Of a stretch of DNA of 64,000 bases, positions 47,214 through 63,550 are shown one piece after another. How positions within the stretch are numbered: position 1 is the first letter of the stretch; every line of letters starts with the position of its first letter. The stretch is from positions 384,001 through 448,000 of the forward strand of contig CAWIEK010000049.1 of the NCBI GenBank assembly GCA_963835065.1, in the 5' to 3' direction. A model generated the notes under the pieces. It was not told the DNA's origin. It saw nothing but the letters and a program-made list of their open reading frames with translations, and ran no database searches. The position numbers and the translations under genes are program-made. The stretch comes from an uncultured Chthonomonadaceae bacterium (GTDB taxonomy: Bacteria > Armatimonadota > Chthonomonadetes > Chthonomonadales > Chthonomonadaceae).

Positions 47214-47225
47214 TGGGCGTACAAA

Positions 47226-47543: not shown

Positions 47544-47564
47544 TTTAGTATGAGAATATAGTTT

Positions 47565-47637
47565 GCCTCCGAGGTCAATTGGAAAAGGCGTCACGCTTCG
47601 AACGTGGATACAGCAGGTTCGATTCCTGCCGGGGGCA
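47565..47637 (+). tRNA. trnR: tRNA-Arg(TCG)
   Basis: Stem TCACG/CGTGG, loop CTTCGAA; A instead of U at position 8. Confidence 0.78.
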
Positions 47638-47734
47638 TGGGTAGGGAGTAGGATGTGGGGAGTGGGGAGTAGGAAAAACAGGATATTACAGTACAGGTCT
47701 ACTCCCTACTGCCTACTCCCTAACCCCTATATTT

Positions 47735-47807
47735 GCAAGAGTGGCGCAATTGGTAGCGCGTTTCACTGCCGTCGAAATGGTTGCGGGTTCGACTCCCGTC
47801 TCTTGCA
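47735..47807 (+). tRNA. trnG: tRNA-Gly(GCC)
   Basis: Acceptor GCAAGAG/CTCTTGC, loop CTGCCGT; A73. Confidence 0.82.
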
Positions 47808-47846
47808 TGAATTGTGTTGAGCCTTGTGTTTGGATGGTCTGCATTG

Positions 47847-47921
47847 GCCGGGCTAGCTCATGCTGGTTTGAGCGCACTTCTTATAAAGGTGAGGACGTGG
47901 GTTCAATTCCCATGCCCGGTA
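47847..47921 (+). tRNA. trnI: tRNA-Ile(TAT)
   Basis: Stem CACTT/AGGTG, loop CTTATAA; A73. Confidence 0.85.
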
Positions 47922-47952
47922 TGAAGATGCAAAGATGGTACGGCGTTTCTGA

Positions 47953-48024
47953 TCCCCTGTAGCTCAATGGTGGAGCGTTCGGCTGTTAACCGAAGGGTTG
48001 CTGGTTCGAGTCCAGCCGGGGGAG
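47953..48024 (+). tRNA. trnN: tRNA-Asn(GTT)
   Basis: U1-A72, G73; loop CTGTTAA. Confidence 0.92.
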
Positions 48025-48029
48025 TTTGC

Positions 48030-48100
48030 GCACCTGTCGCTTAATGGGAAAGCCCACTCCTGATAAGGGTGTCACGAAGGTTCGATTCCTTCCGGGTGCA
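48030..48100 (+). tRNA. trnI: tRNA-Ile(GAT)
   Basis: Stem CACTC/GGGTG, loop CTGATAA. Confidence 0.85.
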
Positions 48101-48214
48101 TGGGAATAGGGTTTTAAGGTTTTAGGGTTGTATGGTTTCAGGTGTTGGGGAATAAGTATTTGGGGAACGGTGAAGGGCGCGAGTTGTGGTTACGGATAGG
48201 TTTGAAGGGGATGC

Positions 48215-48286
48215 GCCGCAGTAGCTCAGTGGTAGAGCGCCATGCTGAAAACGTGGACGTCGTCCGTTCAACTCGGACTTGCGGCA
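48215..48286 (+). tRNA. trnF: tRNA-Phe(GAA), integration target (contains attL)
   Basis: Stem CCATG/CGTGG, loop CTGAAAA. Confidence 0.9.
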
Positions 48287-48402
48287 TTGTTAGGGTTGTG
48301 CGTAGGTAGAGTACCCGCTCCTACCTGTGCGCGTTGCGGGTTTAAGCCGTGTCTCTACCCCGCCATGTTGCTGTCATTAAGCACTCTGAAAGGACAGCAA
48401 CC

Positions 48403-49398
48403 ATGCTTCTTTACACCCTGATTGGCGACTATCTGCAAGCCCTGCGCGTGGAACAAGGCGCGGCGGCGACCACGCAGAAAGGCTATACCGCCCAAATTCG
48501 CCACTTCCACACCTGGCTGACAGCAAACGGCTACCCGGAACCGATACTTGCCGACTTCAACGCGCCCGTTTGCCGCCGCTTCCTGTACTATTTGAGCGGC
48601 AAAGGTTTGAGGCCGCGCAGCATCCGTTCGTACTTCCACCCCCTCAAAGGCTTCGGCGAATTCCTTATCCGCAACGGCGTTCTTACCGACAATCCGGCAA
48701 AGACTGTCACCCTCCCGAAGAAGGACGCCGCCCTACGCAAGACGATCACGGACGAAGAAATCGCCCTCCTGCTGGACGCCTGCCACCGCAACCGCAACCC
48801 GCGCCGCGTGGCGTTGTGTCGCGCTGTTTTGTCTGTTCTGGTCTATGGAGGCTTGCGCCGCTCGGAACTGTGCGATCTGCGCCTGGAGGATGTGACGCTT
48901 CCCGACCCGAAGGACAACAAGAGCAAGGGCAGCCTACTTGTGCGTTGTGGCAAAGGCAGCAAGAGCCGTCGTATCTACCTGCCCGAGGAAGCCCTAACCG
49001 CGCTGAAAGAATGGCTGGCGCTGCGTCCGAAGAACTGCAAGCATCCCTATCTGTTCGTCTATGACGTGAACCGCCGACTTGGACATACAAGCCTGCAAAT
49101 GCTTGTGGAGGATGTGAAACATCAAGCCGGACTTGCGGGGCATGACAACATCAAGCCCCATTCGATACGTCACTGGCGGGCAACCGACCTGCTACGGAGT
49201 GGCGCCAACATTCGGGACGTGCAGGCGTTTCTAGGCCACAGCAGCCTGACGGTTACGGCTATCTACTGCCATTCGTCGGAGGAGCAACTAAGGAACATCA
49301 GCGAACTGACGAACCTGCACAGCCAAACGCAGTCGCCGCCCGATCCACGCCTCGACCGGCAGGACGCGCGCCCCCGCTTGCGCCGGATTGCCCGCTGA
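48403..49398 (+). CDS. int: Tyrosine recombinase / integrase
   Basis: GGLRRSEL, GKGSKSR, HSIRH, LGHS, TAIY catalytic set; adjacent to attL. Confidence 0.93.
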   Translation: MLLYTLIGDYLQALRVEQGAAATTQKGYTAQIRHFHTWLTANGYPEPILADFNAPVCRRFLYYLSGKGLRPRSIRSYFHPLKGFGEFLIRNGVLTDNPAKTVTLPKKDAALRKTITDEEIALLLDACHRNRNPRRVALCRAVLSVLVYGGLRRSELCDLRLEDVTLPDPKDNKSKGSLLVRCGKGSKSRRIYLPEEALTALKEWLALRPKNCKHPYLFVYDVNRRLGHTSLQMLVEDVKHQAGLAGHDNIKPHSIRHWRATDLLRSGANIRDVQAFLGHSSLTVTAIYCHSSEEQLRNISELTNLHSQTQSPPDPRLDRQDARPRLRRIAR

Positions 49399-49427
49399 AA
49401 AAGCAGACACCCGTATGCTTATTGGGG

Positions 49428-49472
49428 TAAAATAAGGGCAGGGTTCTTTGCGGGAACCCTGCCCTTATTTTA
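49428..49472. terminator. Strong hairpin / bidirectional terminator after the integrase
   Basis: 19-bp IR TAAAATAAGGGCAGGGTTC / GAACCCTGCCCTTATTTTA. Confidence 0.75.
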
Positions 49473-49560
49473 GTGCCGTGTGCAGGCGAATGAAGCGATT
49501 AACACCCTCATTCTACCCGCATCCCGGCGCACTCGTCAACACTCGACGGAGGTTTGCGCT

Positions 49561-50625
49561 ATGTTCTACTCCAAAAAAGCCAAAGCCACTTTGGACCGCA
49601 TCAAGTATTTCCAGACGAAGAAACAGGAAGGCTACGCCCGACGGCAAAAACTGCTTGCACCAGACAGACTACCGACAAGCACACCTGATGCTGTCGCACA
49701 AGCGCACATTGACCAGCGCGGTATTTACTTTGAAAACAGGATTCTTTTTTGGGAATGGTTTATCCAAACGGAAATCCACTTTGATCTGGAAACTGGAACG
49801 TTCACCTGTCCTATCGTTACTCCCCTTTTGGTACATGCTTGCGCGAACGCGGGGGAAATTCTACACATGTCTTATGCAGAGTATCGCGCCTACCGGCAAA
49901 TCGTGGAGGCTCCGCCGCACCATACATTGGCGAAGAAGTTTAACAGAGCGATGAAAGCGGCAATGGATGCCTCCGATGCCGCCAGTGAGCAACTCGTCTT
50001 TCAACAGATGTACGCAATAACCGAAGCCCTGTCTAAGCAGCACCCAGCATACAAGCCGACGCATGAAATCGAACATGACGCCTTAACTGGATGGATTGCG
50101 TCTCAAAAGGAACGATGGCATGTTCCGAGAGTAAACCGCCAACGCCCCGCGAACTTGGAAGCCGAAGTCCTGGAAGAAATGCGGAGCAGTGTCTTCCAGA
50201 TGCAACCGCGCGATCTACCTTTCTTTCCTGTCGCATTTGGTGAACCTTCCTTTATCAACCTGCCTACTCTTGTACGTGGAAGTGTGGCGAAGACTAACCA
50301 ATCAGACGAAGATAAGTGGAAAGATCATAATCCCGCGACACAGGCAAAATTGCGCGAAATGACAGAGCCGGCAGATGAAACGGAAGAAGTTCGGCTCCGT
50401 ATCGGGAACCGTCAAGCGTTTGAGGCTTTGCGGCCTCACGCGAGACTTAATCGGCGTGAGAATGAGTACTTTACCTGTTTGCTGGAAAACCCGGAACTCT
50501 ACTTCAATTCTTATGGCGGCAATCTGGCCGTGTCTAAGCGGTTGGGATGGACACCTGAGAATGTGCGCCGGGTGAAAAGTGATTGCCTTGCCAAACTCAC
50601 TGCCGCCGCGCAAAAGCATCCGTAG
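49561..50625 (+). CDS. Hypothetical protein with C-terminal sigma-region-4-like HTH
   Basis: GGAGG SD; LNRRENEYF...AVSKRLGWTPENVRRVKSDCLAKL. Confidence 0.6.
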   Translation: MFYSKKAKATLDRIKYFQTKKQEGYARRQKLLAPDRLPTSTPDAVAQAHIDQRGIYFENRILFWEWFIQTEIHFDLETGTFTCPIVTPLLVHACANAGEILHMSYAEYRAYRQIVEAPPHHTLAKKFNRAMKAAMDASDAASEQLVFQQMYAITEALSKQHPAYKPTHEIEHDALTGWIASQKERWHVPRVNRQRPANLEAEVLEEMRSSVFQMQPRDLPFFPVAFGEPSFINLPTLVRGSVAKTNQSDEDKWKDHNPATQAKLREMTEPADETEEVRLRIGNRQAFEALRPHARLNRRENEYFTCLLENPELYFNSYGGNLAVSKRLGWTPENVRRVKSDCLAKLTAAAQKHP

Positions 50626-50712
50626 CCGCAACAAACTTTTCCAAATATTTTTTCAGAAAGTTCTCACACTTGCCCCCTCCTCGCCGCCTACTGGTGAAGG
50701 AGGGATTTTTTT

Positions 50713-50913
50713 ATGCCAGCTATGCTACCGACACGCCGACTGGTTTGCATTTACGAGGGCAATCTTATCGGCCAGATGCAGCTTCTCGCAACTTCTTGCG
50801 ACCCGGAACTTATTACCATCGCCATGCAGAAGATGTTGCCCCATACGAACAGGCCAATGCGCAGGCCGCGAACCCGCAAACGCCGAGGCAAAGAAAATGG
50901 CCGGAATTGTTGA
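50713..50913 (+). CDS. Small hypothetical protein
   Basis: GGAGG SD, basic C-terminus, in the rightward operon. Confidence 0.45.
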   Translation: MPAMLPTRRLVCIYEGNLIGQMQLLATSCDPELITIAMQKMLPHTNRPMRRPRTRKRRGKENGRNC

Positions 50914-50989
50914 CAGCAATTCCGGCCAAGCAGAACGGACACAAACACGAGACAAACGGCCTTTGGACAAAGGCAAATTGAGGTGAACC

Positions 50990-51610
50990 ATGAACATTAT
51001 GACTGACAAGTGTGCCCTTGTCAACACGCCCCCGACCCGCAATATACGGCGGGACATTACCACTCCTCCGACGCACGTAGCGAAACCGGAAAGCGTCATT
51101 TTGCAGGCTTCTGCCGCCCATATCGAAACGGCGCGCGTCCTTGCGGGTATGCGTACATCGCTGCACGACGGACGGCGCAAGCCGCATGAAGATTTAGGCG
51201 CGGATGCCAACCGTGAGGCCGATTATGTGGGACTTCTCGCCGAATTGACGATCCTGATCGCGCTCATCGGCGCAGGCTTTCGCCCCACCCAATTTACGCT
51301 GTTGGCAAACCCGACGCCAAGCGGTCCCGACTTCGCTCTGAACGGCAAAACCTTCAATGTCAAGGCGTTGCCGATGGGCAAGCGCTTTCTGTGTGTCAAC
51401 GAACGTCAGCGCATCGATCCGCGCCAGCATAGCGATTTTTACTTGCCCATGCAGTTCTTGACGTCAACAACCTTACGCGTATTGAAGCCAATTGAGGCCG
51501 CTGCTGTTGCCACCTGGCCGTTGCGTGAAATGCACAGCGCCTACCGCTCGACAGACATTGCGGCCCTTTCCGCCTTGCACGATTTGAAGGAGGTGGCGCA
51601 ATGCCGGTAA
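50990..51610 (+). CDS. Hypothetical protein, PD-(D/E)XK-like fold
   Basis: GLLAE...GPDFALNGKTFNVK pattern. Confidence 0.55.
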   Translation: MNIMTDKCALVNTPPTRNIRRDITTPPTHVAKPESVILQASAAHIETARVLAGMRTSLHDGRRKPHEDLGADANREADYVGLLAELTILIALIGAGFRPTQFTLLANPTPSGPDFALNGKTFNVKALPMGKRFLCVNERQRIDPRQHSDFYLPMQFLTSTTLRVLKPIEAAAVATWPLREMHSAYRSTDIAALSALHDLKEVAQCR

Positions 51611-51879
51611 AATTCCCCTTCGGCAAATTCAACGGCGTGGCCGTTGATAACATTCCGTCGTGGTACTTGACGTGGGCACTGAGCAACCTGACTGACCTGG
51701 ACACCGCGCTGCGTGACGACATGCAGCGCGTATTGCAGCAGCGGAAACCAGTACGCAAGCCCGCCCCACAAAAGCCTGTCTCTCGTAAGCCCGTTGGGAA
51801 GCGACAGGGCCAGCCCTCAAAACCAACCCCGGAAGCAATTCAGGCATCCATTCGCTTAATGAAGAAGGGAGGCGCGTAA
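51601..51879 (+). CDS. DUF3820 / ExoX-C-terminal-like small protein
   Basis: FPFGKFNG..VDNIPSWYLTW. Confidence 0.7.
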   Translation: MPVKFPFGKFNGVAVDNIPSWYLTWALSNLTDLDTALRDDMQRVLQQRKPVRKPAPQKPVSRKPVGKRQGQPSKPTPEAIQASIRLMKKGGA

Positions 51880-53544
51880 ATGGCAACCCTCCTTATGGAC
51901 GCCGTGAGCAAGCTGCGCGCTGAACCCGATCCTAATCACCCCGGCGATTTTCTGGCGGACTGCCCGGACTGCTGCCAGCGCGCGCTGCAATTGTGCAAGG
52001 ACGCCGAAAGCAATCTTGCCGCCTACTGCCCGAACTGCGGCAAAGGCGCCGGTCCCAAGTTTCGCAAGATGTTTCCCACAATGCCGTCCCTTCCCAAGCC
52101 CTTACCGCGCTCGACGCCTGACCCGCCACCGGCAGAAGCGGAATTGAACCGAGAACTGGCCGGCCTGCCTACAACCGATATGGGCAATGCCGAGCGACTG
52201 GTGAAACGCTTCGGCGCGGACTTGCGCTTCTGCCATAGTTTCGGAAAGTGGCTGATATGGGACGGCAAGCGCTGGAAGCCCGACGACAGCAGCGCGGCCA
52301 TTCGCCTGGCAAAGCGGACGGTACGCCTGATCCACGCGGAAATTGCCAGCATTGACGTGACGGATACGGACTCGGATAAAGCAATGGTAAAGGCGCTCAC
52401 GGCTCACGCGAAGAAGAGCGAGGCGAAAGAACGGCTGATGGCAATGCTGAAACTGGCGGAAAGCGAGGCGGAAGTTTCTGTCACCAGTGACGCGCTCGAC
52501 GCCGACGAGTGGCTGCTGAATGTCGCCAATGGAACGCTCGACTTGCGCACTGGAACCCTGCACCCGCATGTTCGGGCGGACCTGATTACTAAATGCACTC
52601 CCATCCATTATGCCCCGGTGACGTGTCCCTTGTGGACGAAGTTCTTAACCCGCGTAATCCCCGATGAAGCCGTACGCGACTATGTACAGCGCGCGTGTGG
52701 CTATGCCCTGACAGGGCGCACGTCGGCGCAGTGCGTGTTCTTCTTGTATGGCAACGGCAAGAACGGCAAGTCCGTGTTCACGGGCGTATTAGAACACTTG
52801 CTTGCCGAGTATTGGGGCAAGACGCGGGCAGAAACCTTGATGCAAAAACGCGATCAAGGCAATATCCCTAACGATGTGGCCGCGCTGCGCGGGTTGCGCC
52901 TGTGTACCGTGAGTGAAATCAACAACGGCCAGCGCCTGAACGAAGCCCTGATTAAAGACTTGACCGGCGGCGATACGCTGTCTGCCCGCTTTCTGCATCA
53001 GGAGTTTTTCAACTTCAAACCACAGTTCAAATTGTGGCTATACGGAAACCACAAGCCCGAAGTGAAAGGCACAGACGAAGGTATCTGGCGGCGGCTGCGC
53101 TTGATCCCCTTCAATGTGACCATCAGCGAGGAGGAGAAAGATACGGAACTGCCGGAGAAGCTGCGCGGCGAACTGTCGGGCATTCTTGCCTGGGCGGTAC
53201 GTGGGTGCATGGAGTGGCAGCGCGTGGGACTGGCCGAGCCGGAACCAGTCCGTCAGGCGACGCAAGCCTATCGGCATGAAATGGACAACACCGCGCAATT
53301 TCTGGCAGAGCGCTGCACAGATGCGCCGGACGAATGGGGCTTCTGCGCTGAATTTGGCGGCAATCTGTACGAGGCGTATGAGACGTGGTGCAAGCTAACC
53401 GGCGAACACGCCTGCACCAAACGCGCGTTTGGGGATATGTTGACGAAGAAAGGGTATGCGAAGAAGCGCAACGCCAAAGGGCAGCAGTATACCGGAATCC
53501 GGCTGTTGTCCGAGTCGGAAATGCAGGCAAGCGCCTGTGTATAG
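51880..53544 (+). CDS. P4-family / D5-like SF3 helicase with N-terminal Zn finger
   Basis: TDMGNAERL, LNVANGTLDL, YGNGKNGKS Walker A, IKDLTGGD..ARFL, DEGIWRRL. Confidence 0.93.
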   Translation: MATLLMDAVSKLRAEPDPNHPGDFLADCPDCCQRALQLCKDAESNLAAYCPNCGKGAGPKFRKMFPTMPSLPKPLPRSTPDPPPAEAELNRELAGLPTTDMGNAERLVKRFGADLRFCHSFGKWLIWDGKRWKPDDSSAAIRLAKRTVRLIHAEIASIDVTDTDSDKAMVKALTAHAKKSEAKERLMAMLKLAESEAEVSVTSDALDADEWLLNVANGTLDLRTGTLHPHVRADLITKCTPIHYAPVTCPLWTKFLTRVIPDEAVRDYVQRACGYALTGRTSAQCVFFLYGNGKNGKSVFTGVLEHLLAEYWGKTRAETLMQKRDQGNIPNDVAALRGLRLCTVSEINNGQRLNEALIKDLTGGDTLSARFLHQEFFNFKPQFKLWLYGNHKPEVKGTDEGIWRRLRLIPFNVTISEEEKDTELPEKLRGELSGILAWAVRGCMEWQRVGLAEPEPVRQATQAYRHEMDNTAQFLAERCTDAPDEWGFCAEFGGNLYEAYETWCKLTGEHACTKRAFGDMLTKKGYAKKRNAKGQQYTGIRLLSESEMQASACV

Positions 53545-53644
53545 TCAGGGCGTTGTGTATAGTCGTGTATAGTGTGCGGAGGTTTTTTGTTTCAGCGCGT
53601 CTCGTGAAGTGAAAAACATGCACTAACTATACACGACTATACAC
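53537..53644. repeat. Iteron cluster, putative replication origin
   Basis: GTGTATAGT at 53537, 53555, 53565; inverted ACTATACAC at 53626, 53636 (perfect 19-bp IR). Confidence 0.75.
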
Positions 53645-53772
53645 ACCCTACACAGAACACCGTTCTTTTGGGCAAAGAGAAGGCAGATGCCGCCCATCTA
53701 CAAAACATACGGACGTGGGTACATCAGGCACTTGAGGCCGAACTGATGCAGGGAGAACAAAGCAAATTTAGT

Positions 53773-54348
53773 TTAGCGGATACGGCGGAAATATGACAGC
53801 TCCCTGTTGAACTCTCGCAGGGTAAGTACTTGCCCGTCCGCGCTGACTTCAAAAGGCCAGGCCGTTGTGTCTCTTTCAATAAACTCCGCTTGTTGCACGG
53901 AAGGAGGGCCAACCAGCAGTTTGTCACCGGAGACATGGTACTCCCTTATTATGGTAGTCATACCTATAGGGGGTACAAACTCCTCTTTGCTTTGGACAGG
54001 TTCTTGGTAGGACAAAGTATGCTCATTAAAAGTGAGCATATTGTCAAAGACAAAGTTACTTTGTGACGTACTTATCCATACACCTATCAATCTATTCTGT
54101 GATGAGTGAGAGCGCATGAAGAACCATACCGAACCAATTCCCAGAACCACCAAGAGGACGCATAGTGGCTTTAGAAAACCTATCGCGCGAATGGTGGTTG
54201 GCTGTGTTGGTCTTTGATCGGGCGTTAGCATTTGCGTAGGAGGCGAGGCCGGAGGCGCGGTGAACACCGTTCGGTACTGGTGTCCGCATTGCGCACAGTG
54301 CGGAGCGTCGAGGGGAGCAGGGGTAGCGCAACGGGGACATTGTTTCAT
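53773..54348 (-). CDS. Zinc-ribbon membrane-anchored protein
   Basis: CPRC...CAQC, Pro linker, one TM helix. Confidence 0.7.
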   Translation of the reverse strand: MKQCPRCATPAPLDAPHCAQCGHQYRTVFTAPPASPPTQMLTPDQRPTQPTTIRAIGFLKPLCVLLVVLGIGSVWFFMRSHSSQNRLIGVWISTSQSNFVFDNMLTFNEHTLSYQEPVQSKEEFVPPIGMTTIIREYHVSGDKLLVGPPSVQQAEFIERDTTAWPFEVSADGQVLTLREFNRELSYFRRIR

Positions 54349-54476
54349 GGTTTGCTTCTCCTGATGGGACTAAAAGGGCTTCACCAGATGCTCAAGCCTG
54401 TCTGTAATTGGGTTGGTGGTTCAGATTTCATAAAAGCAGTATAGCACAGGCGTCAAGCCCGACAAACATATACATG

Positions 54477-54496
54477 TGTACACAATCTTGTGTACA
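54477..54496. promoter_or_regulatory. Palindromic operator-like site in a divergent intergenic region
   Basis: TGTACACAA-TC-TTGTGTACA perfect. Confidence 0.55.
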
Positions 54497-54512
54497 GAAA
54501 GCAGGTCACCGA

Positions 54513-54872
54513 ATGGCAGAATACCCCGTTTTTGATGCCGCAGGCTTCCGGCGTTTTGTGGAGCAGGATGGCCCCATCATCCACGACGCCATTCACAACC
54601 TGAACAATGTGGGCGAACAGCTGCAGGCCGCGCTGCAAGCCGCGCCCGCGTTGCTGGAAGGACGAACGCCACAAACGGCGAACCGGTGTGCCGACTATTT
54701 GCAGCAGATCGCCGTGACGTTGGCAGCGATCCAGCACGGATTGCTTGTTCTTGACCGCGACTTGGGCAGCATCGGCCTGGGTGTCAATCACGCGGCATTG
54801 GGACTGAGAAGCGAAGCCTTGCAAGCGGCACAGGCGCAACTACGACAACCGAAAGGACGGAGGACACGCTAA
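54513..54872 (+). CDS. Helical hypothetical protein coupled (TAATG) to the next gene
   Basis: 119 aa, amphipathic helices. Confidence 0.6.
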   Translation: MAEYPVFDAAGFRRFVEQDGPIIHDAIHNLNNVGEQLQAALQAAPALLEGRTPQTANRCADYLQQIAVTLAAIQHGLLVLDRDLGSIGLGVNHAALGLRSEALQAAQAQLRQPKGRRTR

Positions 54873-57142
54873 TGGCAGGCGAGAAAACCATGTTAGGCGT
54901 GGATGTGAATGTCGCGGCTCCCAACGCGCGGGAGTTGTTCGGCGACTTGCTGCGATGGGTGGAACAACTCAAGCAGGCCGCCAATGTGCAGATCAACATT
55001 GGCGTACCGGGCAATGTGGGCGCGGGAACCGGCGCGGGCGGCGCGGCGCAGGCGGTACGCAACTCCACGCAGGCCGGCAGTCCGGGCGGCAGTGGGTGGA
55101 GTCCTGCGGGGATGTACACCGGTGCGCCTGCCGCCATGAACAACAGCCAGCGGGCGTATGATGCGGCAAAGGGCGTAGGCTTTCAGGGCAGTTACAACGA
55201 GTGGAAGCAAGCGGAGTTTGAACAGGGGCAGGGACGGCGGCAATCGGCGGCGGAGCGCGAAAACGAACGTCGGCAGCAGCAGGCAGACTGGGCGCACGAC
55301 AACGGGATCAAGCGCCAGCAGGCGGATGAAGCGTGGCTGCTTAGAGACCGGGATCGTGGTCTCAAGCAAATGGACGCCGACTATGCGTGGCTGGACAAGC
55401 AGGACGCGGTTGCCGCCAAAGCCCGCGTTCCCTTCTCGGACGGACTTGGCAACCGGATGCGGCAGGGCTTCAATGTCCTCAACCCGATGGCCGCCAACAA
55501 CGACCTATACACGCGCGGCCAGCAGCGGTATGCTGCGCAAGCGGTGGTTGGACTCGCTACGCACACTATCGGAGGTGAACTGTCGCTGTATGCCAACAAC
55601 ACGGCCACTGGCGATTACAACCCCATGCAGGCGGCAGGACTGGCCGGCGCCGCCGCCGGTGGCTTTCTCGGACTGGCGGCAGGTGCGATAATCGGCTCCG
55701 TTGCGCCGGTTCCACAGCCAGGACTCGGCGCACTCATTGGGATGCAGGGCGGCATGACGACCGGAAGCGCGTATGCGCAGTCTGTCATGGCTCCCTTTAT
55801 GCGGACGCACAGTATGGCGCTGACGCTCTCGTCGATTGCCGCGCGCGAAGGCCGCAATGTCTACGACATGATCGGCGGGCATCACCACCGGATCGACACG
55901 CAGACCAGCGGATTGCAGCATCTGTCCGAAGAAATCAGTTTTCACGGCAAGACTGACCGTGAAATCTTAGGGATTAAGGCAGGACTCTACACCGGCACGG
56001 ACATTATCAGTGGGCCACAACTGGCGCAAACGTATGCCACGCTTGGCAGTGGCCTGCTGGCGGCGGGCAACGATCCGCGCCGCGCCTACGATTTATCGGC
56101 GAACTTAGCACGAAAGTACGGGCAGGCTGCGCCGCAGATGGCGACAATGGCGGCAGGCGTGATTGCGCAGACCGCGAAGTGGGGTGATAATCGGGGCGAC
56201 CTGATGCTGGCAACAGGACCGGAAGCCTTTGGGGCGTATGCGGACGCGACGGGCAAACCCGACTTCACGAAAGAACAACTGCAAGGCTATGGCGACGTGC
56301 AGCGCGCCGACTACCAGATGCAGGTAGCGGAGACAAACCCGCGCGGGCGGGGACAGGCCAAGCAAATCGTGTACGACGCGAAACTGAAAGCCCTGACGCC
56401 CTTTGGAACGGACACGTTGGCGTATCGGCAGGCGCAACAAGGCCGACGGCAAGCGGTATTGCAGGGCTACGAGGAACGCGACATTACCGCCTACGATATT
56501 CCGATGGCGGGACTGGAAGCCGAAGAACGCATCCATCAGGCCTTACCCTATCAGCCGGGCTACAACTATGGCGCGGCTTTAGAGCGCATGGGACTGCGGG
56601 CGAACCAGTTGAACACCGTCGGCAAGCGGTATCAATCCCTCATGGCAAAGGGACAGCTAAGCGAAGAAGAACAGAAGGCCACGTACAGCCAGTACCAGGG
56701 GATGCGGGTCGCGCAGGCGCAGGACGTGGCGGTTCTGGCGGAAGGCGGCGAAGACCGGGCGATGCTCCTCGCGGCAGGACGGGGTAACAGCCATAACCGC
56801 TACGACAGCGAACAGCAGGCGTCTATGGCGGTCTTCAACATCGGCCACCCAAGAAGAAGTCACGGCGCGATCAATGGGCAGCAACTTGCCATGCAGAACG
56901 CTTTCCTGCACAAGTACGATACGCCCGACTTCGATGCCGCCGGCGCGGCGATGCCGAAGGATAGAATGACAGGGATGGACTCTACGCAGGTCGTGGGCTT
57001 GCTGTCGCGCATTGCCGAAGCCGTCGAAAGCCGGGGCAAAGGCATGGGCAGCAGCGTCAATCCGGGTGAGGCGCGCGGCATGGTGACGGGGGCGCTTGCG
57101 CTCACTGATATTCTTGGTATGCCCCCGAAGAACACGAACTAA
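54872..57142 (+). CDS. Tail tape-measure-like protein
   Basis: 756 aa, Ala/Gly/Gln-rich and helical; GAAAGGFLGLAAGAIIGSVAP..GLGALIG glycine-zipper. Confidence 0.55.
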   Translation: MAGEKTMLGVDVNVAAPNARELFGDLLRWVEQLKQAANVQINIGVPGNVGAGTGAGGAAQAVRNSTQAGSPGGSGWSPAGMYTGAPAAMNNSQRAYDAAKGVGFQGSYNEWKQAEFEQGQGRRQSAAERENERRQQQADWAHDNGIKRQQADEAWLLRDRDRGLKQMDADYAWLDKQDAVAAKARVPFSDGLGNRMRQGFNVLNPMAANNDLYTRGQQRYAAQAVVGLATHTIGGELSLYANNTATGDYNPMQAAGLAGAAAGGFLGLAAGAIIGSVAPVPQPGLGALIGMQGGMTTGSAYAQSVMAPFMRTHSMALTLSSIAAREGRNVYDMIGGHHHRIDTQTSGLQHLSEEISFHGKTDREILGIKAGLYTGTDIISGPQLAQTYATLGSGLLAAGNDPRRAYDLSANLARKYGQAAPQMATMAAGVIAQTAKWGDNRGDLMLATGPEAFGAYADATGKPDFTKEQLQGYGDVQRADYQMQVAETNPRGRGQAKQIVYDAKLKALTPFGTDTLAYRQAQQGRRQAVLQGYEERDITAYDIPMAGLEAEERIHQALPYQPGYNYGAALERMGLRANQLNTVGKRYQSLMAKGQLSEEEQKATYSQYQGMRVAQAQDVAVLAEGGEDRAMLLAAGRGNSHNRYDSEQQASMAVFNIGHPRRSHGAINGQQLAMQNAFLHKYDTPDFDAAGAAMPKDRMTGMDSTQVVGLLSRIAEAVESRGKGMGSSVNPGEARGMVTGALALTDILGMPPKNTN

Positions 57143-57417
57143 TGCAGGGGGAAGCGGGAACCTTGCGGGTTTGTGCGCTTCTCCTGCCATTGCTGTAGGA
57201 GCGCGGCAAATTCGGGAGACTCATACGCCAATGCCTGCGTTGCCAGGTGAATATCCCGAATTTCCATCATCTTGAACACAAGGGCGTCGGAGGCTTCGCG
57301 CCCTTGTATCCTACCTTCGGAAGCGTCCTGCGCCAGTTGTTGAAAGTCATCGTAGAGCGCGACCGTCTGTGCCATCAATTGTTCAAACTTCGCTTTCAGT
57401 TCTCGTTCTAAATCCAT
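57139..57417 (-). CDS. Small helical hypothetical protein
   Basis: GGAGGT SD; 92 aa. Confidence 0.6.
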   Translation of the reverse strand: MDLERELKAKFEQLMAQTVALYDDFQQLAQDASEGRIQGREASDALVFKMMEIRDIHLATQALAYESPEFAALLQQWQEKRTNPQGSRFPLH

Positions 57418-57638
57418 AGCAGCACCTCCGGCTTATGCCAATGTTAGATTTTCGCCCGTCCTGTACAGTCGTATCTTGGCAGGACAGGCAATTTATCGTG
57501 TACTTCTCCCGAGTTTTTGTGCCTTCTGGCACGGTTCGCACGGTTGTCTTTTTCTACACTCCCCGCCGCCACAACGCGCCGGAAACGTCGTATTTCCTCC
57601 CGGCACAACGTTCGGCACAATTTGTGCCAGTTTGGACA

Positions 57639-57944
57639 CTACAACGCTTGACGAAGGGCGCGCAGGGCGGCTTCCACGCGGGCGCGCATAGCGGCGTCGA
57701 GGGTGAGGGCGTCGAGTTGGGGCGTGACCTTGTTCCAAAAGTCGCGCTGTGCGTAGGGGCAGCGGGTGCGCGTGGCCTGGACACTGCCCAGATACTTCAC
57801 GACGCGCTGGCGGGGCTTGCCGTGGACGCGCGTGTTCTGCACCAGCACGGCGGAAAGCGTGTCTTTGCAGCCCTTCTCGCCGTTTGGCGTGGCGGCGCTC
57901 CACGTTTGGCGCGTTCCCTGTCTGTGTTTCCAACGAATGTACAT
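57639..57944 (-). CDS. Hypothetical protein (beta-hairpin GKPRQRVVKYLG)
   Basis: AAGGAG SD; resembles the N-terminal domain of IS1634-type transposases and mobile-element small proteins. Confidence 0.6.
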   Translation of the reverse strand: MYIRWKHRQGTRQTWSAATPNGEKGCKDTLSAVLVQNTRVHGKPRQRVVKYLGSVQATRTRCPYAQRDFWNKVTPQLDALTLDAAMRARVEAALRALRQAL

Positions 57945-58054
57945 GCGGTTTCTCCTTTCTGCTTTGCTACTACGGGCAGGTGGAAAGGAGAGGTAATTGC
58001 CCTGTGAACGGCGTAGAGTCGCGCACAGGGCAACGTGATTCGATTACGGCCTAT

Positions 58055-58414
58055 CTACGCGGCCAGCGTGTCCGCGACGTGGGCCAGCACAAGGGTGCAG
58101 CAGGTGTCACTCGCTACCAGCATCTTGCCGGCCAGCGCGCGCACCTTCGCGGCGAAGTCTTCATTTCCAACATGTGGGGCAGAAACACCGTTTTGTACAG
58201 ATGCAGGGCTTTGCGCCCGCGAACAGTTCACCACGCCGAAGTCCGGGAAGTCTTTGCCAACGGTGAACGGGTTGCCGAAGTAACCATCACAGCGCAGGCG
58301 GTCGTCTCTCCTGCCGACAAAGACGTGATCGCTGTATTCCGGCAACTCCTGCCAGCCGTAGGGCAGGCTGGTGAGGTTTACGACGCGGGTTTGCGGGTTC
58401 GTTGCGGTGTGCAT
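58055..58414 (-). CDS. DUF4326-like protein (degenerate)
   Basis: TRVVNL, VFVGRR, YFGNPF, LAGKML. Confidence 0.65.
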   Translation of the reverse strand: MHTATNPQTRVVNLTSLPYGWQELPEYSDHVFVGRRDDRLRCDGYFGNPFTVGKDFPDFGVVNCSRAQSPASVQNGVSAPHVGNEDFAAKVRALAGKMLVASDTCCTLVLAHVADTLAA

Positions 58415-58486
58415 ACTTCTTCTTCTCCTTGTGCAGTGGGGTGTCAGGCCGGGAATGGGTACGGCTCCCGGCAGGCCGTGCGGGTG

Positions 58487-58882
58487 TCAGCGTCGAGTAC
58501 GCTTGTGCGTCATGTGGCGGATAGGTCGGCCTATGAGCGCGTCGGTAGACACAGCGGCTTGCGTGAGCAGGACGGGCGCGGGCGGCGCGTGGTCTACCAG
58601 CAGAGCCGAAGCGTAGTCCAGAAACTCGGCCTGTCGCTCCAGCATCAGCGCGACGGCCTGCTCCTTGTCGTCCGTGTCCGGCTCGGCGGCTCCGACTTCG
58701 ATGAAGGCGTACCCCAGGCGCATGTACAGGCCGTCAAAGAGTGTGTCGTCTTCCACGCGCTTGACGGGCGCGGGCGTGTCTGGCGGTTTGGGCGCGTCGG
58801 GCGTCGGCAGGCAGGGCGCAACCGGATCGTTCCAGTTCGGCTTGGGCGGGCGCGTCGGGCGGGGCAATTGTTTCGTGTGCAT
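58487..58882 (-). CDS. Hypothetical protein
   Basis: AGGAG SD; Pro-rich N-terminus. Confidence 0.55.
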   Translation of the reverse strand: MHTKQLPRPTRPPKPNWNDPVAPCLPTPDAPKPPDTPAPVKRVEDDTLFDGLYMRLGYAFIEVGAAEPDTDDKEQAVALMLERQAEFLDYASALLVDHAPPAPVLLTQAAVSTDALIGRPIRHMTHKRTRR

Positions 58883-59002
58883 GGTTCTTCTTCTCCTGTG
58901 TTGGTGGTAGAATGGAACCGGCAGGGCGTCTCACTTCTTGCCGGTTCGCAGGGTGTCGGGCGTAGGGAAGTTTGCCGCTTTCCTATGCCCGCTTTGTGTG
59001 TC

Positions 59003-59302
59003 TTACAGCGGCGGGCGGGCGGCGTCCTGTCGGTTTAGAATGGCTTCGCTGAACGGCAAGTCCAGTTCGTGCGTCATTTCCTGTTCCCAATAGCGCGTCA
59101 GGACTTTCAGGGCGCTTTTCAAGTCCTTGTGGCGCGTGACGAGTTGGCTCTTGCCCTTGTTGCCAATCATCTTTTGGGTTTGGCTGTGCAGGGCGAGCAA
59201 TTCCTGCGTGTGGGTAATGTCGAGCGCGCAGCGGGTTTGCAGGGCGTCCAGCACGTCTTTGACCGTGACGGTGGCAGGTCGGGGTGGCGCTTGCGTTTTC
59301 AT
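59003..59302 (-). CDS. Hypothetical protein
   Basis: GGAG SD; in the leftward operon. Confidence 0.55.
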   Translation of the reverse strand: MKTQAPPRPATVTVKDVLDALQTRCALDITHTQELLALHSQTQKMIGNKGKSQLVTRHKDLKSALKVLTRYWEQEMTHELDLPFSEAILNRQDAARPPL

Positions 59303-59383
59303 GTTCCGTATTCTCCGTAGGGTTGGTGTTGTGGCAGGGTAGCGAACTGGATACCCTGCCGGGTTGTCTGGCAATGGTGGCGA

Positions 59384-59605
59384 TTAGCCGCGCGGTTTCA
59401 TGCGGCCTTTGCGCGTCAGGGCTTTGGCGAAGTTGCAGGCCATGTGCCGGCCTGCGCTGTCGGTGCAGTCGTAGCGTTTCACGATGCTTTCAATCGCCGC
59501 GTGAAAGCCTGCCGAACATTCGTCTTTGGTGAACTGGTGGCGGCGGGCGTCGTGTCCGGGCTGGAACGCGCCGGGGTTCGTTTTGCGCGTGGTCTGCATC
59601 AGCAT
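59384..59605 (-). CDS. Small hypothetical protein
   Basis: AAGGA SD; GAFQPGHD..RH.FT..EC..G motif. Confidence 0.55.
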   Translation of the reverse strand: MLMQTTRKTNPGAFQPGHDARRHQFTKDECSAGFHAAIESIVKRYDCTDSAGRHMACNFAKALTRKGRMKPRG

Positions 59606-59715
59606 TGCTTTGGTTCCTTATCGGGTAGAATCGGAACCGGGAGGGCTGGTCAAGTTTTCCCGGTTCCGGGCTTAGGGAGTGTTGACGCACTTCCTAAGCC
59701 CTTCCTTGTTGGTGG

Positions 59716-60384
59716 TTACAGCGTCACCTTGTCGGCGGGCTGTAAGTCCAGACGGTTGCACAGTTCTTTGCCCCAGTATTCGCCAATGACGAGCAGGGCG
59801 GTTTCCAGTTGGCACACGCGCCTATCGCGGCTATCCTTCACGCCGATTTTGTACACGGATGCGAGTTCGCGGGCGGCTTCCAAGTCCTTGACCATGCGAA
59901 CCTGCAAGGCTTCCAGAAGGGCGCGAACCGTCAACACCGTTTCGTCCGGTTCCGGTACGGCGTAGGGCGCGGGCAGGAGACATTCGGGAACGCCTGTCAG
60001 CAAACGTTCGCGTTCGCCGTCCCACTCTTTGCAGTAGGCGTCAAGGGCGGATACTTCTTCTTCAACGGTCAACGTCAACGCCTGCTGCGCGTGTTCGGCC
60101 TGCAAGCGCAGTTCTTCTTTCACCCACAGGATATGCTTGCAAATGTCCCGATGCTTCTGCCAATCTTCACAGGTGCAGCAGGCGGCTTCCACGTTGACCG
60201 TATGAAAGCGATGTTCGGGCGTGTTCACATGGTAGGTATCCGGGAGCGGCGCGTCTTTCAGCGTTGCAACCTCAAAGGTATAGCCCTGCGCGGTCAACTG
60301 CTGCGCTTTTTCCCAACAGCGCGCCAACCTTACAGCCTGCTGCGCGTTGCGCGGTTTGTCGGTGTGCGTGAGTGTGTTCGTCAT
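59716..60384 (-). CDS. SWIM zinc-finger protein
   Basis: CTCEDW......CKHI. Confidence 0.8.
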   Translation of the reverse strand: MTNTLTHTDKPRNAQQAVRLARCWEKAQQLTAQGYTFEVATLKDAPLPDTYHVNTPEHRFHTVNVEAACCTCEDWQKHRDICKHILWVKEELRLQAEHAQQALTLTVEEEVSALDAYCKEWDGERERLLTGVPECLLPAPYAVPEPDETVLTVRALLEALQVRMVKDLEAARELASVYKIGVKDSRDRRVCQLETALLVIGEYWGKELCNRLDLQPADKVTL

Positions 60385-60545
60385 TGTCGTATCCTTTCGG
60401 GTAGTAGAGTGTGCGTCTTCAGAACGTGCGTTGCGTCATGGCGGCTCTTTCACTTCCCGGCGTTCCTGCTTGATAACAGGTCGAGACTTTAACATCATTC
60501 GGGAAGTCTCTGTATGAAGTTTGTCTGCATCGTTCTTATGTCTCT

Positions 60546-60680
60546 ATTATACACCTATTACGCACCTATAACCAGTAGACAAACAGGTAGACACGAAAAC
60601 TTTCTTGACTTTTTTACACCTATCTGCTATCATTTACACTATAATCAGGTGTGCAACGTCTCACATTTAGGTATCTGATA
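60546..60680. promoter_or_regulatory. Divergent promoters with repeated (A/G)CACCTAT boxes
   Basis: + strand TTGACT(60605)-17-TATCAT(60628) with extended TG; - strand TATAAT at 60546-51; boxes at 60551, 60562, 60616 and inverted partial boxes near 60647, 60668. Confidence 0.65.
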
Positions 60681-60692
60681 GGAGTGTGAACT

Positions 60693-60881
60693 ATGCTGAA
60701 AGAGAATGATCCGCGTTACGCTACACATTTCGCTATGTCGCTGCGTCTCAAACCGGGAACGGGGCAACTGCTGGAAGATATGGCGAAGCAAATGGATACC
60801 AGCAAGACGGCGGTTATCACGCGCGCCCTGCGAGAACTGGCACGGCGGGAAGGTATCGAAGTGAAGGAGGAAACGGCATGA
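60693..60881 (+). CDS. Ribbon-helix-helix (CopG-like) regulator
   Basis: MSLRL....QLLEDMAKQMDTSKTAVITRAL. Confidence 0.82.
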   Translation: MLKENDPRYATHFAMSLRLKPGTGQLLEDMAKQMDTSKTAVITRALRELARREGIEVKEETA

Positions 60882-61102
60882 GTGATAAAGACTTCATCGA
60901 ACAGGTACGCCGCAGGGCGATTGACGTAGCCGCCCTGATCGGCGCAAAGCAGTACGACGCGGCAGGCATTGCGGCCTTGACGCTTGCCAGTGACGCCGCC
61001 GCGCACAATGGACAGTACGCCATGCGGCAGGAACAGGCACACAGCGACGCCTACAAGCTGAACACGCTCACCGTACACCTTGACGCCGCCGCGCCGGAGT
61101 AA
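60878..61102 (+). CDS. Small hypothetical protein coupled to the RHH gene
   Basis: ATGA overlap, AGGAGG SD. Confidence 0.6.
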   Translation: MSDKDFIEQVRRRAIDVAALIGAKQYDAAGIAALTLASDAAAHNGQYAMRQEQAHSDAYKLNTLTVHLDAAAPE

Positions 61103-61541
61103 GAACGCAACGCCTGATTAGCCACGCCACGCCGCAAACGCGCTGTACGGGCCACGTGAAGTCACGGCGATGCCTTCGCGTGGGGAATGTCTGATATTAT
61201 CCGAGGGGGTGTCTTCTGCCGAAGCCGAACCCTCCCGAACACCAGAACACAAAAAAAGACGCCGGAACAATATTGTGCGGGCAGACGCACAATCGTTTGG
61301 GGTATCGCAACTGATTACTGTTCCCCTGCTGGTTTGGCCTGTTTGCTTGTGGGAGTACGTAGGAGTGTGTAGAGGCAGGGGAGAAGTCTCATCGTTCCCC
61401 TGTTTCCCAACACGGTGTAAAGACGGCAAGGCTGTCACTCATACGGCGGACGCAACAATGAGAAGATGACTGTGGAATGTCCAAACTGTGGCTACTTCTT
61501 GCAGCCGTAAACCATTGACAAGAACGCAAAGGTGTTGTCAC

Positions 61542-62021
61542 ATGCAATCAGCAAATAAGTTCTTTCCTGTTCTCATAACGGGTATGTTGACGGTCATTGC
61601 GTACTGTCTCTGGCAGTTAGCCTTGCCGCAAGACGTGACGGTTAGCAACCTTCTGGCCGACCCGCTTCGCTACAATGGCAAAAAGGTGCATCTAAAAGCC
61701 TATGTTGTTGCTAGTACGGGAGTTTCGACCATTGCGCTTATAAGCGATCAGAACACAGGCGTTACGGATAACATCGCCATTGTTCCCACACTGCCCGGCT
61801 TTGATTGGATCAAGCGCCCGTATGTAGACCTGACAGGAACCTTCAATGCAGAATCGAAGATACTCCATTTGACAGATGGACGTGTTCTTCAACCCCAAAC
61901 CGTACCTGACCCACCAGCACCTACAGTGCGCGCGCCTTTTGGTTCTGGAACATTTGACGATTTGCCGAAGCATCATTTGGATCAAACCCTACCCATTTAC
62001 ACCACCATTCCTCATCGATAA
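61542..62021 (+). CDS. Membrane-anchored hypothetical protein (OB-fold-like)
   Basis: N-terminal TM; VTVSNLLADPLRYNGKKV..LTGTF. Confidence 0.6.
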   Translation: MQSANKFFPVLITGMLTVIAYCLWQLALPQDVTVSNLLADPLRYNGKKVHLKAYVVASTGVSTIALISDQNTGVTDNIAIVPTLPGFDWIKRPYVDLTGTFNAESKILHLTDGRVLQPQTVPDPPAPTVRAPFGSGTFDDLPKHHLDQTLPIYTTIPHR

Positions 62022-62520
62022 AGAAGCCGTGTACGCGGTCTGTAGGGCGGATTGTTCACATTCGGGGCTATCGTTCGTCTCCGTGACTCTGAGCGGCCTT
62101 TACGGGGCATGGACAGGGCAGGGTAGAGAAACGTCGGCGTACATACGTGCAGGAACAAACGTTCAGGCTTGCGGAGGTGGGGCGGAAGCGTTACAATAGC
62201 CTACACCCGAACCACGGATAGGAGGAGTTTGGCATGGCAATGCGGAATGAAGATCGGCAAGCGTGGCAAGCCGCCTTTGCGCTGGCCTTGCGCCTGACAC
62301 GAAAGGAACCAGCGTCTGTCTGTGCAGGGAACGCACCTGCCGAAGCCGTAGAAGCCGCGCCGCTGCAACCGCCCCAGACGCACCACCGGGAGAATTCGGA
62401 CTAGTCCGGGTTTTGCCAGGTAAAGCCATAGGAAGTAACAGACAACAGCCACAGGCCGCACGTTCGCGGTTCCTGTGGCTGTTGAACTGTGCAGTCTATT
62501 CCCTGCCGTGTGCGTGACTC

Positions 62521-63138
62521 TCAGGCGGCAATACGCGCCTGTTTGGGACGGCGCAGGAAGGCGGCTCCGGTGAGGCTCAGGCCGGTGAGGAGGGCGAGTG
62601 AGCCGGGTTCGGGCACGGCGGCAGGGGTGGTGGAGGAGAACGTCAGGTTAGATTCGATGAAGAAGGTCACGTTACCAAACGAGGTTGTGAAGGTTGATGA
62701 TGATGAAAAAAGCAGGGCTACCGAACTTTGCGGAGCCGTCAACGTGAGCGGCCCCGCCGTCGGTGTAATTCCAAGCACACTGACCACTGTAGTGGGGTCG
62801 GAGAAGCCGGCACTCGCAACAGTGCCTCCCAAATTGTCTATTGCTGCGCCGAAGTTCGCGACGGTACCGGAGTTGCTTCCGAGGACAAGGTTGACCGTAC
62901 CCGCAAAATTGAACTGAAAGCCGAAACCCGTGGTCACGCCGGAAATGGGAGCCGTTTCCGTGAAGGTGAAGGTCTGGTTGTTGAATGGCGTCACTGATAC
63001 GCCAGGCACAAAAACTACGCCTGACGCCGTGCCACTCAGCACATAGGTTAGGTTTTGAGCGTGGGCGGCGTTGGGCGCGGCAAGGCAGGCAAGCGCGGCC
63101 AGAGCAAGGGTGTGACGAACGAGAAAACGGGTGTGCAT
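62521..63138 (-). CDS. PEP-CTERM sorting domain protein (cargo)
   Basis: Signal peptide ...AAHA; VPEPGSLALL-TM-RR tail. Confidence 0.9.
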   Translation of the reverse strand: MHTRFLVRHTLALAALACLAAPNAAHAQNLTYVLSGTASGVVFVPGVSVTPFNNQTFTFTETAPISGVTTGFGFQFNFAGTVNLVLGSNSGTVANFGAAIDNLGGTVASAGFSDPTTVVSVLGITPTAGPLTLTAPQSSVALLFSSSSTFTTSFGNVTFFIESNLTFSSTTPAAVPEPGSLALLTGLSLTGAAFLRRPKQARIAA

Positions 63139-63489
63139 GGGTGAATACTCTTTCTGTGGCGGCAAAGCAGGGAATTAACGGTCTGTAAAAGTGTCCTGTA
63201 AAGGATATTGCAAGATTCATGCCAAACCGCCACATTTGCACAGTTTGCCCGCTTCTTTCTGCAAAACCCCGCATTTCTCCCTTTGAGGCAACCGGAATAG
63301 ACGCTTGTGTACGCACACAAAGGAATGTACAAACATGCGGCTTGTGTCTTTCGCGGGGCAGTGGCTAGAATGGGGAGTGCTAATACACGCGACGTGGAGG
63401 GGTAGAGCCACAAAACCGTCGCTTGCCTATGTAGAGTACAAGACTGTACCGCGCACAGGCCGGACTTAAACCCCTGACGCCGTAAAATG

Positions 63490-63550
63490 CAGTGGTAGAG
63501 CGCCATGCTGAAAACGTGGACGTCGTCCGTTCAACTCGGACCTGCGGCAT
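63490..63550 (+). repeat. attR: 3' 61 bp of tRNA-Phe
   Basis: 60/61 identical to 48227-48287. Confidence 0.95.

Follow-up and report, generated by a model that had tools for sequence, protein, structure and literature searches.

The tRNA array and the integrated element

The window considered here, i.e. the whole stretch of 64,000 nucleotides that was analysed, belongs to contig CAWIEK010000049.1 of an uncultured Chthonomonadaceae bacterium (phylum Armatimonadota; assembly GCA_963835065.1). It contains an array of tRNA genes, which is interrupted at its tRNA-Phe gene by a 15.3-kb element bounded by attachment (att) repeats. With a probability of roughly 0.55, this element is read as a satellite that carries a tail tape-measure gene of its own and whose integrase would exchange strands at positions 25-31 of the target tRNA. 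The reading builds on features that are shown, namely the att repeats, the gene content, the homology of the tape-measure gene, the membership of the integrase in its family and the start of the att blocks in the D arm. The corresponding features are listed below; G000 denotes the genome of the window, while G001 and G002 are congeners of the Chthonomonadaceae host.

46274..48286, forward strand: tRNA array on the host side, 16 genes from Asp to Phe, syntenic in G001 and G002
48215..48286, forward strand: tRNA-Phe(GAA), the reconstituted target gene, with a G7-U66 pair (ARAGORN, Rfam)
48227..48287, forward strand: attL identity block, which begins at tRNA position C13 in the D arm
48231..48252, forward strand: predicted recombination core, comprising a half-site at 48231-48237 (tRNA 18-24), a 7-bp spacer at 48238-48244 (25-31) and a half-site at 48245-48252 (32-39)
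48305..48360, no strand: D-arm-like half-sites in two accessory inverted pairs, which start at 48305 and 48339 in the stretch separating attL from the integrase gene
48403..49398, forward strand: Xer-like tyrosine integrase of 331 amino acids (aa), catalytic residues R-K-H-R-H-Y present, no arm-binding domain detected, 88% identical to the copy in G002
54513..54872, forward strand: orphan open reading frame (ORF) of 119 aa in the position of a tail-assembly chaperone, no homologue found
54872..57142, forward strand: tail tape-measure homologue of 756 aa, the sole recognisable virion gene
63327..63489, forward strand: element arm preceding attR, in which two D-arm-like half-sites (63401, 63431) occur along with a block of 49 bp that is identical in G002
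63490..63550, forward strand: attR identity block, i.e. the displaced tRNA-Phe fragment, with C66
63633..63719, forward strand: tRNA-Ser(GCT), the last gene of the array, displaced by 15.3 kb

Two 61-bp repeats with a single mismatch delimit the element (48227-48287 on the left and 63490-63550 on the right), and when the element was compared by blast with the complete 8.0-Mb genome, the 61-bp match was obtained at these two places alone. The mismatch corresponds to tRNA position 66, which is T at 48279 in the left gene and C at 63542 in the right fragment; since this position faces G7 (48221), the left gene features a G-U pair. ARAGORN, in concordance with Rfam, recognised 16 tRNA genes at 46274-48286, the attR fragment and tRNA-Ser at 63633-63719. 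A preliminary description of this DNA had reported the repeats and their mismatch, the perfect pairing of the right-hand C66 with G7 as opposed to G-U on the left, and the parting of tRNA-Ser from the array, all of which reappeared upon reanalysis. The GC content of the element (57%) is host-like, and merely 6 of 150 random windows were equally distant from the tetranucleotide profile of the genome. Moreover, other genomic copies exist for both the displaced tRNA-Ser(GCT) and the target tRNA-Phe (C15, C68), so that the cost of the insertion to the host is probably small. The element is regarded as real and probably recently active.

The tape-measure gene

Word search yielded two homologues of the 756-aa ORF, while profile search extended these to 135 clusters of variable length. 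A profile of three sequences matched in 3 of 401 genomes of the phylum, namely in the element of the window and in two prophages, and the same three matches were obtained among 68 genomes of the class. In BLASTP, the prophage homologues matched the 756-aa protein with E values of 8e-32 and 3e-18. Both lie directly behind genes in the positions of tail tube and chaperone, labels that follow from position and not from a hidden Markov model (HMM), on contigs that also carry terminase and portal genes. One of them matches the PHROG tape-measure family (E 9e-4), phrog_167 is matched by 4 of 60 members of the protein family, and the ESM neighbours of the ORF are tailed-phage and tape-measure clusters. 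Because of the position of the prophage homologues together with the PHROG matches, the 756-aa protein is read as a tape-measure protein and as the only recognisable virion gene product of the element. The ORF is intact, and neither a tail-tube nor a baseplate remnant adjoins it. A further candidate was noticed by eye near another family element (L223:12009-15077, G021:C49), where an ORF of 1023 aa, rich in Ala, Gly and Gln, resembles a tape measure.

The integrase family and the predicted position of the crossover in the tRNA

Members of the integrase family occur in 28 of 401 Armatimonadota genomes and, at an identity of at least 40%, at 21 of 79 metagenome loci; viral contigs contained no close relative, as none of 51 matches exceeded 33% identity. 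At 42 of the loci examined, a tRNA gene or fragment adjoins the integrase gene, and among the targets are Phe, Pro, Arg, Val, Met, Asn, Asp, His, Lys, Ala and Gly. The mapped family elements measure 3-22 kb, none of those examined showed a head or tail gene in Pfam or PHROGs, and cargo of a defence type, including restriction-modification, occurs in relatives at varied positions. One metagenome contig (L108) features two family integrases and two tRNA-Pro genes in opposite orientation within 11 kb.

For tyrosine integrases, tRNA-gene islands are described in which an element-borne fragment restores the target gene, with forms that leave either a 3' or a 5' fragment (PMC4383910, PMC8371274), as likewise observed here. 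Islander distinguishes three crossover subsites, i.e. the anticodon loop, the T loop and the T/acceptor junction (PMC4383910), and a review repeats these three, adding that sites in archaea possibly reach across the D loop and that D-loop cleavage has been extrapolated for pTN3 (PMC8371274). The present family, on the contrary, starts in the D arm and points to positions 25-31, for which the literature search yielded no paper that apparently describes a crossover, supplementary att tables of possible relevance lying outside its coverage.

Eighteen att pairs were counted, 14 with a 3' fragment and four with a 5' fragment. Left out were G364 and G314_C118, where the whole gene stands on both sides, the His locus of G011, whose partner is another full gene, G356, whose partner no longer matches beyond position 48, G002_C6 with its two fragments, three 5'-type loci for which no partner was fetched (G003, G324, L257), loci without a found partner, and duplicates. 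The 3'-fragment pairs, which span Phe, Met, Arg, Pro, Lys, Asp, His, Asn and a second tRNA with a CAT anticodon, begin their identity at positions 12-17, one to six bases before G18, in 14 out of 14 cases, while identity in the four 5'-fragment pairs ends at 36, 36, 44 and 46. Hence, the interval common to all 18 pairs is 17-36. Mismatches are distributed unevenly: one pair fails in the D-loop window, none at positions 25-31, two in the anticodon loop and six in the T loop, and identity over 7 bp is typically needed for strand exchange (PMC10111431). A spacer at positions 12-17 was rejected, as several pairs differ there, and the T-loop and J subsites do not appear to apply, given blocks that start at 12-17 and the six of 18 pairs with differing T loops.

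The arms of the elements provide a second line of evidence. D-arm-like half-sites occur 43 times in the arms of the 42 loci, compared to 4.7 +- 2.1 times in shuffles, and inverted pairs of them peak at spacers of 7 bp (12 loci) and 6 bp (8 loci), with about 0.5 expected from shuffled arms. If this geometry is laid on the tRNA, a half-site falls on 18-24, the spacer on 25-31 and the second half-site on 32-39, with AG and YT flanking the spacer symmetrically. In a quick tree, the orientation of the core relative to the integrase flips at least six times, which fits a symmetric core that allows such flips. On balance, positions 25-31, which lie past the D stem and before the anticodon loop, are the probable place of strand exchange, and the accessory inverted pairs at 48305..48360 are likely binding sites of the integrase.

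Exchange in the D loop, over seven bases ending at A21 and directed by the symmetry of the D stem, appears unlikely. Identity across that window in 17 of 18 pairs is in its favour, as is the clustering of starts at T12 (9 of 14), which would fit conserved stem bases beside such a spacer. On the other hand, G080_C29 has two mismatches in the window, the word repeated in the arms includes D-loop bases that should be free if they formed the spacer, the AG ends of inverted arm pairs face the spacer, and all four 5'-fragment blocks extend to position 36 or beyond. A similarly low probability is assigned to an ordinary integrase of the anticodon-loop (A-site) type, for which the D-arm word would be merely accessory. 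The anticodon loop is the commonest published subsite (PMC4383910), and identity across 32-38 is found in the window element and in 16 of the 18 pairs, the two failing ones being divergent members (42% identity) paired across contigs. Nevertheless, these two independent 5'-fragment pairs end exactly at 36, the end of an unrelated island in the genome of the window begins at 27 instead of 12-17, and the arm pairs reproduce 18-24 plus the 7-bp geometry.

Several properties of the data weigh against the placement at 25-31. As many as 11 of the 18 pairs join two different contigs and were retrieved by means of patterns that span 18 to about 36, so that their clean 25-31 interval is given by construction and only their ends are informative; the seven same-contig, anchor-free pairs do not separate 25-31 from the anticodon loop. 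Furthermore, the half-site pattern was widened after the arms had been inspected, a D-loop spacer fails in just one of 18 pairs and an anticodon-loop spacer in two, and five family integrase loci without an adjacent tRNA gene were left out of the counts.

The insertion site in congeners

The tRNA array occupies a syntenic place in both congeners. In G002, the same site harbours a 4.5-kb element with an integrase 88% identical to that of the window, an IS-like transposase and a PEP-CTERM gene, but devoid of a helicase. Its attR equals that of the window in 61 of 61 bases, while each attL features one private change, T66 in the window and T48 in G002, whose attL has C66. This identity is to be seen against arms that are 78-79% identical next to the att sites, array tRNAs that differ by 0-21 bases, and integrase genes with 88 synonymous and 28 non-synonymous codon differences among 305; arithmetically, an inert fragment would be expected to stay undrifted over positions 40-73 with a chance of 0.79^34, i.e. 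about 3e-4. The simplest reading, which rests on two mismatches, suggests recent or repeated integration with the element's tRNA copy in attL, although gene conversion may also account for the attR identity. The earlier proposal that attR holds the original 3' end of the host gene thereby gains support. Of the empty site once asked for, a counterpart was encountered in a relative, where one metagenome contig (49 bases on its shorter side) joins tRNA-Phe to tRNA-Ser across 28 bases, although excision itself was not seen.

G001 was considered as an empty site and rejected, since at its locus (L022, G001:C2, around 1022170-1022900) the tRNA-Phe of the array is cut to a 5' remnant, behind which a different tRNA-Phe and a gene for an HNH endonuclease are located. 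This change looks like a homing-driven replacement of the target gene. Behind tRNA-Ser, G001 also contains five further tRNA genes that are absent there in G000 and G002.

Two further islands were observed in the genome of the window. The first (G000:C44:125505-128647) is a 3.1-kb, integrase-less island in tRNA-Lys(TTT) with a 65-bp att repeat from position 12, a perfect inverted half-site pair with a 7-bp spacer behind attL and, at its right end, a likely secreted-protein gene that matches the PEP-CTERM gene region of the window; the integrase of the window could move this island in trans. The second locus (G000:C63:27140-46293) comprises tandem islands at tRNA-Lys(CTT), with a fragment from position 27 followed by an integrase paralogue, which is 72% identical to the window integrase, frameshifted and truncated.

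Remaining genes and sites of the element

The rest of the element is occupied by the following features.

49428..49472, no strand: 19-bp perfect hairpin with A/T runs on both sides, behind the integrase (z -5.6)
49561..50625, forward strand: sigma-70-like regulator of 354 aa, a weak assignment from ESM features only
50713..50913, forward strand: ORF of 66 aa whose homologues occupy the same position in two family elements
50990..51610, forward strand: protein of 206 aa with a PD-(D/E)xK nuclease fold (pLDDT 93.7)
51601..51879, forward strand: ORF of 92 aa with a weak match to QSregVF_b and exonuclease C-terminal-like sequences
51880..53544, forward strand: P4/D5-family replicative helicase with an N-terminal CxxC-CxxC region, primase catalytic domain not detected
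53537..53645, no strand: direct and inverted 8-bp repeats right behind the helicase, a likely replication origin
53773..54348, reverse strand: zinc-ribbon membrane protein, host-like cargo
57139..60384, reverse strand: leftward cluster of about seven small ORFs, which ends in a SWIM zinc-finger protein (59716-60384)
60605..60881, forward strand: sigma-70-type promoter match (10/12) and a 62-aa ribbon-helix-helix (RHH)/CopG-like gene, divergent from the leftward cluster
61542..62021, forward strand: membrane-anchored cargo ORF of 159 aa with a distant host paralogue
62521..63224, reverse strand: PEP-CTERM surface protein gene, host-like cargo at the same position in G002, with a sigma-54-type -24/-12 motif at 63209-63224

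Most components named in the preliminary description were recovered by independent searches. The integrase matches Pfam Phage_integrase (E 1e-32) while staying below all NCBIfam cut-offs, and the strong hairpin at 49428 is a likely bidirectional terminator behind the integrase gene. The P4-type helicase exceeds the cut-off of TIGR01613, the C-terminal domain of P4-family primases (297 versus 109 bits). The iterons consist of GTGTATAG in three copies and its inverse in two, with a folding z of -7.5, and likely constitute a replication origin. The proposed RHH gene is present, its CopG-like PHROG match being weak (E 0.005). The sigma-like helix-turn-helix protein fared less clearly: its ESM features agree with clusters named sigma-70 at 0.94, the recognition score falling slightly short of the reliability line, and a positional analogue in a relative matches Sigma70_r4, although the ORF itself had no match in Pfam, PHROGs or NCBIfam. 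Concerning virion and transfer genes, HMM searches revealed no capsid, terminase, relaxase or type IV secretion system (T4SS) in 132 six-frame ORFs (PHROGs), 65 of these (Pfam) and 29 ORFs (NCBIfam), and nothing beyond integrase and helicase was recognised by PHROGs in the 132 ORFs or by Pfam in the 65. Thus, the absences stated earlier stand, while the tape-measure gene had been overlooked.

The best solved structural matches of the 206-aa protein are NhoI, Eco15I and Holliday-junction resolvases, and many of its structural neighbours are from phages. It is common to many family elements, in some of which it resides inside primase-helicase ORFs; a PDB sequence search with the nuclease family gave no match. 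The sigma-54-type motif in front of the PEP-CTERM gene is one of 30 such motifs genome-wide, and the 49-bp block identical in G002 (region 63209-63375) may represent a promoter that points outward to tRNA-Ser or, alternatively, a site for an activator.

Comparison with known satellites and mobile elements

The element was initially termed a P4/PICI-like satellite. As an integrated entity of satellite size without capsid, terminase or conjugation genes it conforms to this term, but membership in either class does not follow, because only two of seven P4 and two of five core genes of phage-inducible chromosomal islands (PICIs) were found and because tail genes are forbidden in the PICI model. 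With regard to P4, whose core gene list was taken in part from PMC10085698, an integrase and a P4-family helicase domain are present, a primase domain was not detected, and Psu, Sid, delta, epsilon and AlpA were not found with Pfam, PHROGs and NCBIfam. With regard to PICIs, the element features an integrase and a primase-replicase module, whereas an AlpA, MerR or Stl regulator was not found, RHH-like and sigma-like genes being present instead; searches with PHROGs, NCBIfam and Pfam also yielded no capsid morphogenesis gene and no small terminase. In common with PICIs and P4-like satellites as modelled in SatelliteFinder (PMC10085698), the element combines a tyrosine integrase at a tRNA gene, a regulator and a P4-family helicase with an origin in about 15 kb. 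It differs from them by the undetected AlpA/MerR/Stl, capsid modifier, small terminase, Psu, Sid, delta and epsilon genes, and by its tape-measure homologue, which breaks the no-tail-gene rule given for PICIs in the same source.

A parallel exists with satellites that carry a tape measure without a complete tail module. PLE11, which builds chimeric tails, and other PLEs of Vibrio cholerae are likewise integrated elements of satellite size with a tape measure of their own and an incomplete tail (PMC12987554). As differences, chaperone and baseplate-hub genes are described there for PLEs in addition, ICP1 is known as their helper, and they reside in another host phylum; no PLE gene family was recognised here. 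Similarly, the EPIPs of Mycolicibacterium aichiense are small satellites with a tape-measure gene, which differ by a serine integrase, a small terminase and a head-tail adaptor and stopper (PMC12822802), none of which was found in the present element. As for other classes, Pfam and NCBIfam searches found no relaxase, coupling protein or T4SS as expected of integrative conjugative or mobilizable elements (ICE/IME), and the set of terminase, portal, capsid, tail and lysis genes of an intact prophage was not found with PHROGs.

Proposed mode of life and alternative explanations

Since the element combines a lone tape-measure gene with the lack of capsid, terminase, relaxase and T4SS genes, it likely parasitises a helper phage in the manner of PLE11 and EPIPs. 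According to the proposed mechanism, the Xer-like integrase would bind the D-loop/D-stem word (tRNA 18-24) and the anticodon-loop side (32-39) around the 7-bp spacer, with copies of the D-arm word in the element arms serving as extra binding sites, and integration would place the tRNA 3' copy of the element in attL and that of the host in attR. Infection by a tailed phage of a related Armatimonadota group might then cause the RHH and sigma-like genes to switch on excision as well as helicase-driven replication from the repeat origin. The tape-measure protein, in turn, could be built into helper-derived tails or disturb the tail assembly of the helper.

Alternatively, the element could be a decayed prophage or mosaic island that kept its tape measure by chance and is not packaged on purpose any more, which we hold to be unlikely. 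Such decay is suggested by both genomic homologues of the 756-aa protein residing in prophages, by the reduced relatives in G002 (4.5 kb) and at C44 of G000 (3.1 kb, integrase-less), and by the small terminase that was not found. It is opposed by an ORF that is intact over 756 codons with no adjoining tail-tube or baseplate remnant, by intact att sites, integrase, helicase and origin, by the size (3-22 kb) and lack of head and tail genes of the mapped and examined family elements, and by an integrase no more than 33% identical to any of its 51 viral-contig matches. Still less credence is given to an integrative element that spreads otherwise, be it by general transduction, vesicles or mobilisation in trans, and whose tape measure is solely an anti-phage decoy. 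The defence-type cargo of relatives, including restriction-modification, and the lack of a recognised packaging gene would suit a decoy, and interference with tail assembly is described as a defence for PLE11 (PMC12987554). However, PADLOC detected no defence gene among 19 element proteins, no relaxase was found, and the layout of integrase, regulator, helicase, origin and virion gene is satellite-like.

Returning to the satellite reading, a number of observations count against it. No excised circle, particle or RNA was seen, and the single public run (0.05 share) holds relatives only. The genome, a 92% complete assembly, contains no intact helper and no second convincing tape-measure match; when a helper was sought in it, only prophage remnants were encountered, namely C41 (11600-18520), with portal, protease-like and capsid genes but without terminase or tail, and C10 (6500-13300), with a terminase homologue in pieces. 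Neither a small terminase nor a packaging site was recognised, although divergent small terminases can be missed. With respect to the tape measure itself, the structure predicted for the 756-aa protein is of low quality (pLDDT 39), the putative chaperone upstream is devoid of any homologue, and homologues of the tape measure were detected neither in any other mapped family element nor in the viral contigs searched. The 1023-aa ORF of G021 was rejected as a homologue, its HHalign probability of 1.4% not being significant though above 200 shuffles. Self-matching CRISPR spacers were not seen among matches of at least 24 bases.

Transcription and the tRNA array

It was also proposed that the element is placed such that stress induction of the tRNA array drives its integrase, a reading that is rated as improbable. 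The integrase gene is co-directional with the array, the 116 bp separating it from tRNA-Phe contain no sigma-70 promoter match, and the strong hairpin follows it; moreover, a long cyanobacterial array is induced by translational stress (PMC8421152). It is thus possible that read-through from the array reaches the integrase gene, behind which the hairpin would stop the transcript. On the contrary, family members use housekeeping tRNA genes, the accessory inverted sites between tRNA-Phe and the integrase gene could block read-through, and stress regulation is shown for Anabaena alone (PMC8421152). Because 10 of the 42 family loci have an oppositely oriented integrase, the co-directional arrangement is not conserved as a design, and co-induction is treated as incidental. 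The array is one among many tRNA targets of the integrase family and no special partner.

The array itself resembles the long tRNA arrays (L-arrays) of PMC8421152 in its 17 co-oriented, largely redundant tRNA genes and in the HNH gene of its G001 copy, whereas it differs from them, as they are described there, in being chromosomal and syntenic in three congeners. Its spacers (45551-46862, 47639-47725 and 63564-63790) contain hairpin repeats made of short units, and one such family has well over 100 dispersed matches in the genome. A stretch near 45805-45850 that is conserved in the three congeners may be the array promoter. In addition, the array contains a short-arm tRNA-Leu(CAG) (46965-47038) and a tRNA-Ile(TAT) (47847-47921), both of which are unusual for bacteria.

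Implications

An insertion into a tRNA array is ordinary if taken alone. The element, however, adds a tape-measure-only satellite candidate in a phylum for which the literature search turned up no satellite paper. Extending this to the family, it may be suggested tentatively that integrases lacking an arm-binding domain use, throughout the phylum, a fourth tRNA subsite in the form of a hidden AG-7 bp-YT dyad, retarget at least ten tRNA types via the D-arm word and carry satellites that hijack tails with a lone tape measure. If the crossover at positions 25-31 holds, the three-subsite rule would gain a fourth site that is set by a symmetry other than that of a tRNA stem-loop. The integrase family, with its compact integrases and naturally varied spacers, constitutes a ready test set, and its members are candidates for a simple integration tool.

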